Positions 2,107 through 8,757 of a DNA stretch of 13,301 nucleotides are shown here, one piece after another (position 1 is the first letter of the stretch; each line of letters opens with the position of its first letter). A program made the translations under genes and the position numbers. This DNA comes from Candidatus Odinarchaeia archaeon (lineage in GTDB: Archaea > Asgardarchaeota > Odinarchaeia > Odinarchaeales > Odinarchaeaceae): contig JAHQXC010000032.1 in assembly GCA_029856525.1 (NCBI GenBank), forward strand, positions 1 to 13,301, in the 5' to 3' direction. The notes beneath the pieces are model-generated. The model was not told where the DNA came from. It saw nothing but the letters and a program-made list of their open reading frames with translations, and searched no databases.

Positions 2107-2119
2107 CTTAAAACATTAA

Positions 2120-2135
2120 TGAAATTATAGTTTCA
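2120..2135 (-). promoter_or_regulatory. Putative promoter/operator of the copper module: TGAAA-N6-TTTCA palindrome overlapping BRE/TATA-like GAAACTATAAT
   Basis: Inverted repeat at 2120..2124 and 2131..2135. The TATA-like element starts 24 nt upstream of ATG 2106. Confidence 0.42.
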
Positions 2136-2139
2136 CAAA

Positions 2140-3600
2140 TTAAACTAGAATTAAACTCTTCTTAAAAAGCTTATGCAAATCAGAGTCTTTTAAACCAGCC
2201 CGCTCAAGCAAGCGTTTAACAATAGATAAAACCACGTAACATACAATCTTATTATCAGACATGTATTTTAAAGCAGCGTCACGCCAAGCCTCGAAGAAGA
2301 AAGTGGAAAGATCACGCCTCCTCTCAAATATCTCAGAGTTTAAAGCTTCAAGAAGATTATTAACAGAGACGTTAACAGCGTCAACGTCTAAAGGAATCTC
2401 GGAGACTCCGACCGCGCAGTCGTCGAGATTCAAACCTCTAATCCCGGTTCGACGAATCAGAGTCCTCCTCAAATCAGCGTCCTCGAATTTAAATTTCACA
2501 AGCTCAGCGATCTGCAAAGCCGCTTCAGCTAAAAGCGATTGATTAGAAGCTAAAAGATTCCGAGCCGTCTTAATGAAAGGTTTAAAAAGCTCGGTGTAAA
2601 GGTAACGCGACTGCTGCGAATCGTTTATTAAAGCTTCAACCTCACAGATTCTACGCTCAATTAAACCATACTTCTCTTCTTCAACATCTAAAATATTCTT
2701 GAAAACCCGGCTTAAAATCTCAGAGTAATAGCTACCGGTTAAAGCAGTCTTAAAAGATTTACTGCGAGCATAAGATTTTAAAAGAGACCCGTCAAGTTCG
2801 ATAACAGTCTCAAAGTTTCTAAAAAATATATTCAACTGTTCAAAGTCGAAGGGTTCGCGAATAGACTTCAATAAAAGAGATGAAGGCAGATTTAAATCAC
2901 TGTTAGAAAAATTTTTAAAAAGATTATAAACCCGGTTGAAGCCTTCAATAACAGCGTTAAAACGCGAGCGCACAGTCTCAAAATCTCTTTCAAGTCGAAG
3001 ATTAGATTCACGGAGAATCTCAGCCCGCTGCAAGCTTAAATTATAATCACGCTCCAGCTCGTTAAAACGAGTATTCAAAGAATCATAAGAAGCCTGCAAA
3101 TCTCTAAGATTAGAAGCTAAACGCTTATTCTCATCTAATAGAGTAGCCTTCTCAGCTTGAAGCCCGGCTAAAGCCCTGTTAAGAGAATCCCTCTCCTCAA
3201 CAAGTCGACTACGCTCACACCTCCAGTCACCTAGCATAAAAGTAAAATTTTTTAGAACAGATGATAAAGCAGATTTAAAATTCTCTTTAAAAAGGTTAGA
3301 AGCCTCTACAAGCCGGTTATAAGAATCATAAAGCTCTCTGAAAACACTAGTATAAGAGTTCAGAGAATCCTTAAACTGTTTCATTAAATCTGATAGAAGC
3401 CCGGCGTCGAATACATTCGAAAAAACGGTTTTAGATAAATTCTCTGAGAAAAGCTTTAAACGCTCCAGCTCAACGTTATGATTATCGAATAAGCTGAGAA
3501 TACTATTCATTTCGAGAATCAACTGGTCTAAAGCAGATGAAAGCCGTTGAATTAAAGCGTTCAAAGTATTATTAAAGTCGTCGAAGATCTCATCACTCAT
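2140..3600 (-). CDS. Uncharacterised all-alpha protein with a long leucine-zipper coiled coil, directly downstream of tubulin
   Basis: 486-aa ORF with Leu at exact 7-residue spacing from L133 to L182 and an SD-like AGGTTGAT upstream. It starts 20 bp after the tubulin stop. Confidence 0.85.
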   Translation of the reverse strand: MSDEIFDDFNNTLNALIQRLSSALDQLILEMNSILSLFDNHNVELERLKLFSENLSKTVFSNVFDAGLLSDLMKQFKDSLNSYTSVFRELYDSYNRLVEASNLFKENFKSALSSVLKNFTFMLGDWRCERSRLVEERDSLNRALAGLQAEKATLLDENKRLASNLRDLQASYDSLNTRFNELERDYNLSLQRAEILRESNLRLERDFETVRSRFNAVIEGFNRVYNLFKNFSNSDLNLPSSLLLKSIREPFDFEQLNIFFRNFETVIELDGSLLKSYARSKSFKTALTGSYYSEILSRVFKNILDVEEEKYGLIERRICEVEALINDSQQSRYLYTELFKPFIKTARNLLASNQSLLAEAALQIAELVKFKFEDADLRRTLIRRTGIRGLNLDDCAVGVSEIPLDVDAVNVSVNNLLEALNSEIFERRRDLSTFFFEAWRDAALKYMSDNKIVCYVVLSIVKRLLERAGLKDSDLHKLFKKSLILV

Positions 3601-3605
3601 AAAAA

Positions 3606-3613
3606 ATCAACCT
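3606..3613 (-). promoter_or_regulatory. Shine-Dalgarno-like site AGGTTGAT for the 486-aa gene
   Basis: Resembles GGAGGTGAT and lies 5 nt from ATG 3600. A similar element precedes tubulin. Confidence 0.5.
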
Positions 3614-3620
3614 GAAACAG

Positions 3621-4926: not shown

Positions 4927-6564
4927 TCATGCAACCTGCTGGAAATGTTTAAACACTTCCTCAGATATCCTTCTACAAAGCTCGTTATCAGATAGGTACT
5001 TGTTAAAGTAGTTATATAAAGATTCTTTTGAAACATTCTTTATTTTCTTAACGAGAATCTCAGGAGAGAATAAAATCTCATAGCCGTCAACTCTCACAAG
5101 TCTAATAGAAGAATTATTTTTAATATAGTCTTCGATATATTCACTGGAGATATTCTTAACCTCAGCTCGTTTAACCCAGCCCCTCTCCCCGTATGCTCGA
5201 AGAACATTCATTAAAACGTTAACACCCTCACCCTCTAGAATAAGCGGGAGAATCGTATCATAGATAAACTGTTCCCTAGCGTATTCGCCTGGAATACAGT
5301 TTTGAAATAAAGCGGCTCCGCGAATAGTATTCGAATTAACACCTCTAAGCCTATTCCTAATACACTCGGTGATAGCAGGGTAATGGTTTAAAAGAAAATT
5401 CTCTAACGTGATTAAAAGCCTTCTAACACCATCCCAGCCACCCTTCTCTTTAAAGTTGAGAAGCCAAGATGAGATAACACCTAGAATACGGTTCCTGAAA
5501 TCTCTATAAACGTCACCCAACCGGTCAAGATAGGAGAGAATACTTTTAACAGCTGTGTGAACCTCCAAGCAGATTAATCTAAGCTTATCGACGAAAAGAG
5601 ACTCCTGCTCCACGTATTCTCTGAAGCCTACTCTAAACTTCTCTAATATTATTTTGAAAAGAGTCAAAGAGTTTTTAACATCAGGCTGCTCTAAAACAAT
5701 GTTTAAAGGGATACCGGCATCCTGGAGTAGAAAGACGATCTCGCCGAGATTCCTAAAACACTCGCTTATAGAGTCTAGTAGTTGAAGAGCCTCCTCTAAA
5801 AATAGTTGCTCCGTATCCTCAACGATTATTCTAGACGCCAACCTATCTAGAAAAGCTTGAAAGTCTAATCCTATAGTCTTAAAAAACTCAGCTTTCCGAG
5901 CGTCCACACCGCCTTGAACATCCATAACCTTCACGTAAACGAGGTTCCTGAAAGCTATCCGACGCTCCAGCTCATCTAAACTCCTCTTAAACTCTTCTAG
6001 ACTGCTACGCCAGCCTATAATATTATCAGTGACAGTTGAAAGCTCTATAATATTAAAAACATTAGAATTTTTTAATCTACCAAGATAGTCTAATAATTTA
6101 AGCAGCTCAGATTTCAAGGCTCCAAGCCTAGATTCGAATTCTACGAGAACACTCCAGTTCATTCCACGTTTAGCCGTCTCCTCTCGTATAAGCGTGAAAT
6201 CGCGTTCAACACTTTTAAGAGACTCATCTAAGCCGGCCAGATAATCCAAGCAGTAACCGTAGATCTTAGCCTGAGCTTCAAGCATATTACCTTCAAGTCT
6301 ACTAAGCTTCTCTGAGAGAAGTCTAACAGACTTCTTCCTAGCACCGAATAAGCCTTTAACACCGCTAGTCGACTCCACAGCTATCTTCAACTCTAAACCT
6401 AGTTTTTCAACATCGTTAGCTAAAAGTTTAATAAACTCTAATATCTCAGAGGAGCCGGGTAGAATACTAGAAGCCTTAGAAAGCATGGTTTGAATAACCC
6501 CGCCAGCCTCCTTCAACTTCAAGCTAAGCGACTCTGTATCAGAGCTCATAGAATACACCGCCAA
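4927..6564 (-). CDS. Uncharacterised 540-545-aa helical-bundle/coiled-coil protein directly upstream of tubulin
   Basis: Long ORF rich in L/E/K with several amphipathic helices. The real start is probably ATG 6549 (MSSDTE), since SD-like GGCGGTG (6556..6562) sits 6 nt upstream; the track's start is a TTG. Confidence 0.85.
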   Translation of the reverse strand: MAVYSMSSDTESLSLKLKEAGGVIQTMLSKASSILPGSSEILEFIKLLANDVEKLGLELKIAVESTSGVKGLFGARKKSVRLLSEKLSRLEGNMLEAQAKIYGYCLDYLAGLDESLKSVERDFTLIREETAKRGMNWSVLVEFESRLGALKSELLKLLDYLGRLKNSNVFNIIELSTVTDNIIGWRSSLEEFKRSLDELERRIAFRNLVYVKVMDVQGGVDARKAEFFKTIGLDFQAFLDRLASRIIVEDTEQLFLEEALQLLDSISECFRNLGEIVFLLQDAGIPLNIVLEQPDVKNSLTLFKIILEKFRVGFREYVEQESLFVDKLRLICLEVHTAVKSILSYLDRLGDVYRDFRNRILGVISSWLLNFKEKGGWDGVRRLLITLENFLLNHYPAITECIRNRLRGVNSNTIRGAALFQNCIPGEYAREQFIYDTILPLILEGEGVNVLMNVLRAYGERGWVKRAEVKNISSEYIEDYIKNNSSIRLVRVDGYEILFSPEILVKKIKNVSKESLYNYFNKYLSDNELCRRISEEVFKHFQQVA

Positions 6565-6570
6565 GTTAAA

Positions 6571-7329
6571 CTATTTAAGCAAGCTTATTATAATTCTACC
6601 CCTATCAACTTTATAAGCTAGATCAGAGGAGATGTGATCTCTAAACTGGTTTTTAACAACGCGGAGAAAGCGTAGAACACGGTTATTCAACTCTCTAATC
6701 CTCAACTCTACAACCGCGTCGACAAGCTGGTATATCATAGATAGAAATTCAGGCGAGTGAGCCCCCCTGTTAACATAGTAAACAGCTTGATCGTTAAACT
6801 GTTTATGAATCCGGAAAGCCGATCTACAGAATCGGATAATATCCTGAACAGGTAGATTAATGCTCAGAGAAGTTAAATTAGAGAAAACCCATCTAACCGT
6901 GAAACCGCTTGGAATAGATTCACGCACCTGCTTCATAGCGAATAAAAGCTTAGAAAGATTATAAGGGTTATCTAAAACAACTGTGAAAGAAGTCGACTTA
7001 ACCTTATCCTGAGAGAGCTCACCGGTGAAACAGTCGATGAAGCGAAACCTACCAGACTCACATATAGCCTTCAACTCATCCCTTAAAAAATCGGATTCAA
7101 CACCTAAACCGATAACACTGTTCAAAGAGTATTCGAAAGCGTGATCAAAGTCTAGTTGAATCACATAGTCGCCTCTAAGCAGACTACTCCTAATAATCTC
7201 AGAGCTGAAAACCAATTCATCTGAACCAGGGTCAAATGAGATAAGAGCCACACCGTTCCTGAGAACACCCCCTCCAAGCGCAGCGTCAAGCCCCTCTATC
7301 CCTAAAGGAAGAAAATCAGCTTCAAACAA
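6571..7329 (-). CDS. KaiC/RAD55 (RecA-superfamily) fold protein, predicted catalytically inactive
   Basis: LPLGIEGLDAALGGGV start, LVDAVVELR and RFLRVVK are typical of the family. The Walker A position reads FDPGSDEL and the Walker B position reads RWVFSNL. TTG start with SD GGTGG (7337..7341). Confidence 0.82.
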   Translation of the reverse strand: MFEADFLPLGIEGLDAALGGGVLRNGVALISFDPGSDELVFSSEIIRSSLLRGDYVIQLDFDHAFEYSLNSVIGLGVESDFLRDELKAICESGRFRFIDCFTGELSQDKVKSTSFTVVLDNPYNLSKLLFAMKQVRESIPSGFTVRWVFSNLTSLSINLPVQDIIRFCRSAFRIHKQFNDQAVYYVNRGAHSPEFLSMIYQLVDAVVELRIRELNNRVLRFLRVVKNQFRDHISSDLAYKVDRGRIIISLLK

Positions 7330-7413: not shown

Positions 7414-8247
7414 TTAAGATAGATTACTCAAGACAAGTCTAGGAGCCTTAAAGTGAAGATTAAAAATTAACTGGAAAAGTTTAAAAAAAACTCTAGCATT
7501 AAAGTAAAAACCCTTGAAATCAGGTAATAAGAATCCCCTCAGAAAAGAAACATCTAAAAACTTTTTGAAAAAAGATAAAGCAGTCTTAGCGTCAACACTC
7601 CGCCCCGTCAAATAAAAATAACAGTTAAGCAGAGACCATTTAACAGACGTGTAAAAATATCTCCAAGCAGGTTTAAAACAGTTAACGATAATAGAAAAAA
7701 AGAATAGGAGACTACACAGTATAAAAGATTTAACGATTTGAAAAAAGTTTAACCCAGCATTAAACTGTTTAAAATCATAGCTTCTACCGTAAAGAACACG
7801 GCAATTAGAGAAAACAGAGTTTAAAACAAGCCGCCCTGGAGCGATAAAACAGGATAAAAACCTGTTCACGTTGAAAACCCTGTGAAAACATTTTGAAAAA
7901 AGATCACGTTCAAAACATATAAAAAAAGATTTAAATAAACCGGTCCCAGCCTCGAAAAAATAAAGCAACCGGTCGAGAAAACTAGAATAGTCTAATTTAA
8001 AGAAAAATCTCTGAACAGAAAACATTAAAGATAAAGCAGCACGCCTAACCCCTCCACCAACACCGTCATCTAAAACAATAAGAAGGTCAACATCACTAAC
8101 CCTATCGTTAAAACCTCCTTTAACAGCAGAACCGAAGAGAATAATAGAAGCAGGCAGAAAACCCAGCTTACACTTAAAAATTTTCAAAACCAGGTTCAAA
8201 AACCTTTCAACAGTTAAAGGCGCAGCCACACCGCTGAAAGCACACAT
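7414..8247 (-). CDS. Pol-beta-superfamily nucleotidyltransferase domain protein with a hydrophobic, Phe-rich C-terminal half
   Basis: IILFGSAVKGG...SDVDLLIVLD is the hGS-x(n)-DxD catalytic signature. A hydrophobic stretch reads SFILCSLLFFFSIIVNCF. Confidence 0.75.
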   Translation of the reverse strand: MCAFSGVAAPLTVERFLNLVLKIFKCKLGFLPASIILFGSAVKGGFNDRVSDVDLLIVLDDGVGGGVRRAALSLMFSVQRFFFKLDYSSFLDRLLYFFEAGTGLFKSFFICFERDLFSKCFHRVFNVNRFLSCFIAPGRLVLNSVFSNCRVLYGRSYDFKQFNAGLNFFQIVKSFILCSLLFFFSIIVNCFKPAWRYFYTSVKWSLLNCYFYLTGRSVDAKTALSFFKKFLDVSFLRGFLLPDFKGFYFNARVFFKLFQLIFNLHFKAPRLVLSNLS

Positions 8248-8723
8248 AAATATAAGTTTAGAAACATATCAATAAAAACATTCACAAACCATGAGAAAGC
8301 GAATATAGTATTCTATGAAAAGGCGAATTCTACAATACCCGGAAAACACAAGGTGAAAGCGATACTCTAAGCTAATGTTGAAGAGCAGAAAACCAGAGTA
8401 AGAGAGAAAAACGATAATATAACCGTCACACCGTTAAATCTCACAGCTCACAACACCAGATTCATATAATAAGTTAAATGTTAACACAGCGTATAAAACC
8501 GCTGGTCGACATGCCCAGCGAAGCAATATTTCACATAAACATGGGATTATAGGAGTCCACAGCTTTAGAGATCGTAATATATACGGTTAAAAAGATCGTA
8601 AGCTTTTAAATAACACTGTAGTTGAGAGTGAACGCGCATCCTTGAGAATTGTTTAAAATATATAGGGGTTATAAGAGATTTCAGTAGATTAAAGCCTCTC
8701 GGATCAGGGTAAAGAGGTGTTCT

Positions 8724-8744
8724 ATGAATAAACTCGAGTGTTAA
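8724..8744 (+). other. Possible 6-codon upstream ORF (MNKLEC) with its own SD GAGGTG
   Basis: GAGGTG at 8714..8719, ATG at 8724, TAA ending at 8744. It is out of frame with the helicase ATG at 8758. Confidence 0.25.
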
Positions 8745-8757
8745 TCGAGGTTACTCT

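Follow-up and report, generated by a model that had tools for sequence, protein, structure and literature searches.

EzrA, the spectrin-like regulator of FtsZ, and the proteins PRC1/Ase1/MAP65 are dimeric or rod-like, and their helical-bundle modules bind polymers of the tubulin family. EzrA carries an N-terminal membrane anchor. BtubC, the "bacterial kinesin light chain", is a TPR-repeat protein and the accessory of a eukaryote-like prokaryotic tubulin in the btubAB operon of Prosthecobacter. According to the summary given in PMC9871819, BtubC has been reported to stabilise the filament. TubY, from the type III TubZRC systems of plasmid and phage partition, likewise shares its locus with a GTPase of the tubulin superfamily. 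Its N-terminus is a MerR-type HTH, and its C-terminal coiled coil, a parallel tetramer in the form of a four-helix bundle, brings together the basic amphipathic tails that bind the membrane; the oligomerisation is needed to reach the membrane (PMC7762940). In Odinarchaeota, FtsZ1 binds the membrane by its own amphipathic helix and FtsZ2 does so via SepF, while no partner of tubulin is described in the same paper (PMC12583498), nor is one named in the Odin tubulin literature cited here. Odin tubulin itself has already been crystallised and has been polymerised in vitro under published assembly conditions (Akil et al., 2022; PMC8956254). The OdinTubulin structural paper does not discuss the neighbouring genes. 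The copy of the downstream gene in LCB_4 has been mentioned in passing by Santana-Molina et al. (2023; PMC9871819), where it was described as having coiled-coil segments, as weakly related to ATG16 and as annotated Smc. In the same paper the gene upstream of OdinTubulin was found to resemble Prc1/Snf8 by HHpred, and both flanking genes were said to be specific to the LCB_4 genome. The protein family treated here would bear on the organisation of a pre-eukaryotic tubulin.

The window, i.e., the whole stretch of DNA that was analysed, comprises 13,301 nucleotides. ZIP486 is the working name used here for the 486-aa ORF at 2140-3600 on the minus strand, and the coordinates of this gene, of its parts and of its neighbours are collected in Table 1. 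The gene is present in one copy in the source genome, and the alignment with its orthologues places the start at the same methionine (M-S-D/G-E). The listed start of H545 is a TTG, with an ATG five codons further on. Neither Rfam families nor tRNAs were found in the window.

Table 1. Features of the ZIP486 locus, in positions of the window, with the residues of ZIP486 where a part of the protein is meant.
Feature	Positions	Strand	Remarks
ZIP486 (leucine-zipper protein, P0001)	2140..3600	-	486-aa ORF, downstream of tubulin
Tubulin-ZIP486 spacer	3601..3620	-	20 nt, from tubulin stop to ZIP486 ATG; SD-like GGTTGA
N-terminal helical region, residues 1-125	3226..3600	-	acidic, pI 4.6, net charge -7; helices 3-59 and 66 onward predicted by AF2
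Continuous heptad register, residues ~109-231	2908..3276	-	~17 heptads, ~18 nm as helix
Strict leucine zipper L133-L182	3055..3204	-	every d position Leu over eight heptads in a row; AF2 pLDDT 89-91
Interval first flagged, residues 133-217 of ZIP486	2950..3204	-	exact mapping by position check
Predicted all-alpha C-terminal domain, residues 234-470	2191..2901	-	highest conservation among the globular parts, 31-68% identical between lineages
Basic motif L-I-R-R-T-G-I-R, residues 381-388	2437..2460	-	near-invariant in 13 sequences
Basic amphipathic C-terminal tail, residues 471-486	2143..2190	-	S-D/E-L-x-K-L-F-x-K-x-L-x-L-V/I, then stop
Odin-type tubulin, 424 aa	3621..4895	-	Pfam Tubulin 2.5e-45, Tubulin_C 1.3e-14
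H545, 545-aa helical protein upstream of tubulin	4927..6564	-	third member of conserved block
KaiC-like gene, head of block	6571..7329	-	Pfam ATPase/KaiC 1.9e-08
Nucleotidyltransferase-domain gene, upstream	7414..8247	-	Pfam NTP_transf_2

The order H545-tubulin-ZIP486 is kept in all six loci for which context was available, belonging to two families, and the distance from tubulin to ZIP486 stays within 17-29 nt in every one of them (20 nt here). The six loci come from related genomes, so the gene order does not count as independent evidence, and four further lineages are without context. Tubulin is 87-92% identical to the source protein within the genus and 69-72% identical in the second family. 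H545, which belongs to no Pfam family, recurs in each of the five other loci, where it is 27-69% identical. The identity of ZIP486 to the source protein is 30-60%, against 69-92% for tubulin, and ZIP486 thus evolves much faster than its neighbour. The KaiC-like gene occurs in three other loci of the same genus and was not found in the two loci of the second family, where ZIP486 is followed by convergent genes and not by copper genes. As these flanks differ in the second family, the conserved unit is a core of three genes. Matches to the nucleotidyltransferase gene were obtained by BLAST in two same-genus loci and in both second-family loci; in the second family this gene directly precedes H545.

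Co-occurrence was followed through 400 Asgard genomes. The C-terminal domain of ZIP486 was found in 6 of the 400, all in the order of the source genome. Tubulin was detected at E <= 1e-30 in eight genomes, namely the same six and two that carry tandem tubulin pairs, from both of which ZIP486 is absent. Genomes with an Odin-type tubulin are in this set exactly the six with the ZIP486 C-terminal domain, and the one genome of the order that lacks ZIP486 (82% complete) lacks tubulin as well. By comparison of these related genomes, the ZIP486 gene appears tied to Odin tubulin through conserved synteny and co-occurrence, and its product is a concrete candidate for an archaeal tubulin-associated protein. 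Contrary to the statement in PMC9871819, both flanking genes prove to be conserved throughout the class and not specific to one genome.

Members of the family were collected by several searches. A word-indexed search gave three relatives with 57-60% identity, one of them being OdinLCB4_007530 from Candidatus Odinarchaeum yellowstonii. The profile of the C-terminal domain, run against 1.84 billion representative proteins, retrieved 7 clusters, all of them 464-494 aa long and of the same architecture, the domain being C-terminal. One extra match of the profile, to a repeat protein of 6,888 aa (P0015), was regarded as spurious. A 40-residue stretch of the profile (positions 186-226) was matched 14 times in this protein with an E value of 5e-12, and a helical repeat without relation to the ZIP486 family is the probable explanation. 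Metagenome scans revealed no further ZIP486 loci, and the scan of genome contigs returned only those already known. All named members of the family originate from Odinarchaeia MAGs, one of which is labelled only Promethearchaeota. The genomes of the second family go under the names "Candidatus Hodarchaeota archaeon" and "Promethearchaeota archaeon", yet are placed in the order of the source genome. ZIP486 shows all the features that the family has in common, i.e., a length of 464-494 aa, a helical N-terminus, a coiled coil, the C-terminal domain, the tail and a gene beside Odin tubulin. The C-terminal domain is marked by the motifs L-P-S, R-Y-x-H-T-E-x-F-x-P and L-I-R-R-T-G-I-R, and the proteins end with K-L-F-x-K-x-L-x-L-V/I. 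On the evidence of these searches, ZIP486 is an Odinarchaeia-specific family.

The sequence-only reading had drawn attention to this protein by a regular run of leucines. Translation and a position check confirmed Leu at 133, 140, 147, 154, 161, 168, 175 and 182, and the register does resume, as had been proposed, at L196, L203, V210 and V217. V224 continues the d positions further, and S189, also at d, interrupts the run of leucines after L182. The a positions listed in the same reading (L144, N158, L165, Y172, F179 and N200) are likewise correct; the remaining ones are R130, R137, K151, Y186, A193 and F207, and R, K or N fills half of the a positions within the strict zipper. Leucine makes up 16% of ZIP486. 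When the whole protein was shuffled 20,000 times, a run of eight leucines spaced by seven residues appeared in 5 of the shuffles; when residues 120-230 alone were shuffled 20,000 times, it never appeared. At the DNA level, the eight leucines are encoded by five different codons, the 21-nt units of the zipper have a mean identity of just 33%, and no tandem repeats were reported by Tandem Repeats Finder. The zipper is therefore not a recent DNA repeat, and its regularity is held at the level of protein. The zipper is real and non-random. Taken alone, a leucine zipper is an ordinary motif, and the value of this one lies in its conserved pairing with tubulin.

The zipper forms the centre of a longer a/d register, which extends without a break over residues ~109-231, i.e., over approximately 17 heptads. 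The extent proposed earlier, eight heptads with a continuation to V217, was thus too short, and the length of the rod, which had been put at roughly 12 nm, is to be revised to nearer 18 nm for the approximately 123 residues in register. Eight consecutive Leu at d, together with the a/d hydrophobic pattern over 17 heptads, place the segment among the coiled coils. For the comparison between lineages, each sequence was anchored at the invariant column of L175 and its own ungapped sequence was read from there. Over 11 distinct lineages, hydrophobic residues (L, I, V, M, F, Y, W) make up a fraction of 0.66 at a and of 0.84 at d, compared to 0.09-0.19 at the five remaining heptad positions. Identity to ZIP486 in the coiled coil is as low as 14-50%, yet the register is kept in all 11 lineages. 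Insertions and deletions within the zipper amount to exactly 7 residues: a same-genus genome has lost one heptad, and the second family has acquired one. The only other gaps in the register, of 1 and 11 residues, are both situated at its N-terminal edge. In every lineage, one or two residues of the core are polar at about the same point; in ZIP486 these are S189 (a d position) and N200 (an a position). The equivalents within this layer (residues 189-201, approximately 2998-3036 on the minus strand) are N, S, Q or K in every lineage, and Asn at a, corresponding to N200, recurs in most of them. The polar layer may set the register or may serve as a hinge.

The structure of ZIP486 was modelled with AF2 as a monomer from an alignment of seven sequences. 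The model consists of a helix at residues 3-59, one single uninterrupted helix at 66-229 and a helical domain at 240-486, with a mean pLDDT of 77.6 and a pTM of 0.41 for the full length and with pLDDT values of 87-91 over residues 131-200. The earlier idea of a rod between N- and C-terminal helical regions is borne out by this monomer model. We thus describe ZIP486 as a predicted three-part alpha-helical protein with an acidic N-terminal region, a coiled-coil stalk and an all-alpha C-terminal domain that carries a tail. The N-terminal region would pack as a hairpin. When modelled alone, the C-terminal domain reached a pLDDT of 75.9 and a pTM of 0.66, and the last 16 residues stayed below 50. 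In the basic motif at 381-388, the residues L381, R383, R384, T385, G386 and R388 are invariant in all 13 sequences, I387 is nearly so, and position 382 is either I or V. The motif sits in a region of the domain that is predicted as loop or helix end. The tail at 471-486 is the best conserved short segment of the family, with an identity of 44-88% compared to 14-50% in the coiled coil. It is basic, and its amphipathicity is moderate; the hydrophobic moment, at 0.43-0.60, presumably falls below Eisenberg's line for surface helices. The tail may act as a membrane-targeting or partner-docking peptide.

Known families were considered as an identity for ZIP486. Searches of Pfam, NCBIfam and PDB sequences returned sub-threshold matches to generic coiled coils alone, all within residues ~4-270; among them were ADIP (23.6 bits with a cut-off of 34.3) and the coiled coil of CEP135 (3.7e-6). 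The sequence-only reading had named an SMC or chemoreceptor fragment as an identity that would speak against it. The match to SMC_prok_B reached 17.6 bits, with a cut-off of 567, and spans only the coiled-coil region at 116-222; membership in SMC was rejected. The MCP signal domain was absent from Pfam scans of ZIP486 and of the family members, and the Foldseek match to a soluble chemoreceptor (E 2.1) is that of a generic long helical pair, so this identity was rejected too. ATG16 (PF08614) matched weakly in 6 of 13 members, at best with E 3.7e-4 and below the gathering threshold, beside many other generic coiled-coil families, and it was not accepted either. These weak matches reproduce the remark "weakly related to ATG16" in PMC9871819. 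Foldseek against the PDB gave no match with E below 1, neither with the whole model nor with the C-terminal domain, and the ESM Atlas gave no usable match. A wide VIA-align search with the C-terminal domain returned generic three-helix bundles only and no specific fold. All matches lay below the stated helical-bundle background of about Z 13, including the best one, N.BspD6I (Z 10.5 over 67 residues). PRC1 (4l3i) was aligned with Z 6.3 and rmsd 8.3, within the same background, and no MAP65_ASE1 match was seen in Pfam. Collections of phages and plasmids contained no match to ZIP486, and nothing therefore points to a mobile partition system.

Among the described systems, TubY resembles ZIP486 in that a coiled coil is combined with a basic amphipathic C-terminal tail next to a tubulin-superfamily GTPase. 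The suggestion of a TubY-like factor holds to this extent as a functional analogy, while the defining MerR-type HTH is missing. Membership in TubY was rejected, as no HTH or MerR family was found in the Pfam and NCBIfam scans and the N-terminus is an acidic helical region. Unlike TubY, ZIP486 has a domain of 240 residues between stalk and tail, and it is chromosomal, without phage or plasmid matches, and has a eukaryote-like tubulin as its neighbour. With BtubC it shares the position of an accessory beside a eukaryote-like tubulin; unlike BtubC, it matches no TPR model and has a coiled coil as its central element. Its sequence matches neither PRC1/Ase1/MAP65 nor EzrA. Two units of three-helix bundle in the C-terminal domain superpose on an EzrA repeat (Z 10.0, rmsd 1.7 and 70 residues in VIA-align), at a level expected of any three-helix bundle, and the N-terminus is acidic, unlike that of EzrA. 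GCN4-type and bZIP proteins have, as ZIP486 does, Leu at d over many heptads and Asn, Lys or Arg at a. In ZIP486, unlike in these, no basic DNA-binding region precedes the zipper, which is the internal stalk of a 486-aa protein. A bZIP identity was rejected, as residues 110-132 are not basic and none of the 13 members had a bZIP match in Pfam.

By established rules, Leu at d combined with Asn, Lys or Arg at a favours parallel dimers in coiled coils; the rules are reportedly those of Harbury in 1993 and of Gonzalez in 1996. Since ZIP486 has these residues at d and a, textbook rules suggest that its stalk would be a parallel dimer. With a probability of roughly 0.55, we consider ZIP486 to be a parallel, zipper-dimerised rod which acts as a bivalent tubulin-associated adaptor, i.e., a cross-linker or a tether. 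According to this reading, ZIP486 would be expressed, together with H545 and the single Odin-type tubulin, from one closely packed gene block, and the stalk would pair two ZIP486 chains in parallel and in register, giving a bivalent rod. One end of the rod, formed by the paired C-terminal domains and tails or by the N-terminal regions, would bind polymers of Odin tubulin, and the opposite end would hold another partner, which may be a second polymer, H545 or the membrane. The oligomeric state, the orientation of the chains, the contact with tubulin and the role of the tail are what we infer here. What gives the protein its interest is that it is present only where Odin tubulin occurs, is encoded 17-29 nt behind it and has the predicted build of a bivalent rod. 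A more far-reaching proposal would have ZIP486, probably together with H545, as the dedicated tether of a proto-tubulin cytoskeleton, which, as a zipper-dimerised rod, would hold curved Odin tubulin polymers by one end and, by the other, engage the membrane or another partner via the paired, conserved amphipathic tails. This proposal is speculative, and we regard it as rather doubtful. If it is true, ZIP486 would be an archaeal tubulin-associated protein of an origin independent of the eukaryotic MAPs, with a role like that of FtsA or SepF for FtsZ.

The composition of the stalk leaves room for other assemblies. Aromatic residues occupy a at Y172, F179, Y186 and then from F207 to F228, and some e positions are hydrophobic (L155 and L190). 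A trimer, a tetramer or a hetero-oligomer would also fit these aromatic residues and the leucines at e. Only two favourable and one unfavourable g-e' charge pairs are readable, which is too little to fix the orientation of the chains. The stalk could thus form a higher-order or antiparallel assembly in place of a parallel dimer, such as a trimer, a TubY-like tetramer or a self-assembling filament like those of bacterial coiled-coil-rich proteins. Besides the bulky aromatic a residues from Y172 to F228, such an assembly has in its favour the parallel tetramer formed by the C-terminal coiled coil of TubY (PMC7762940), and also the sub-threshold matches of some members to the crescentin rod and to intermediate filaments. 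These Pfam matches are, however, generic and below threshold, and the coiled coil is only ~120 residues long with globular parts on either side, unlike filament-forming rods. Leu at d with charged residues or Asn at a favours dimers according to the established rules, and we consider a higher-order or antiparallel stalk unlikely. We hold it to be less likely still that the functional unit on tubulin is a hetero-oligomer of ZIP486 and H545, joined by their coiled-coil segments, and not a ZIP486 homodimer. The two genes do flank tubulin in every locus, an ad hoc heptad score gives H545, too, a long register (residues 58-232), and in ZIP486 the core stripe is broadened by hydrophobic residues at e. 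The proteins nevertheless show no sequence relationship, BLASTP finding nothing when they were compared as possible paralogues, and Asn at a suits homotypic Asn-Asn layers.

The function of ZIP486 may also be unrelated to tubulin, with the position of the gene reflecting the history of the operon. The protein would then handle DNA or chromosomes, as the old annotation "Smc" implies, or remodel membranes. The invariant R-R-T-G-x-R motif and the basic tail are possible binding sites for nucleic acid or lipid, no recognised tubulin-binding domain is present in ZIP486, and the link to tubulin comes wholly from genomic context. Against this stands the synteny, which is kept in two families at approximately 30% identity of ZIP486 while other neighbours differ, and the exact co-occurrence and co-absence with Odin-type tubulin in the genomes searched; as for DNA or chromosome handling, membership in SMC fails. 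A function apart from tubulin appears to us the least probable of the alternatives, and quite improbable in itself.

Two intergenic regions of the window can be mentioned in addition. A non-coding gap of approximately 510 nt (8248-8757) lies between the divergent nucleotidyltransferase and helicase genes; it is AT-rich, with a strong AT skew and several TATA-like stretches. The spacer after ZIP486 (2107-2139, minus strand) has a length of 33 nt and contains the sequence CTATAAT, which precedes the start codon (ATG) of the HMA-thioredoxin gene by approximately 25 nt. In view of this sequence, the copper genes may have a promoter of their own.
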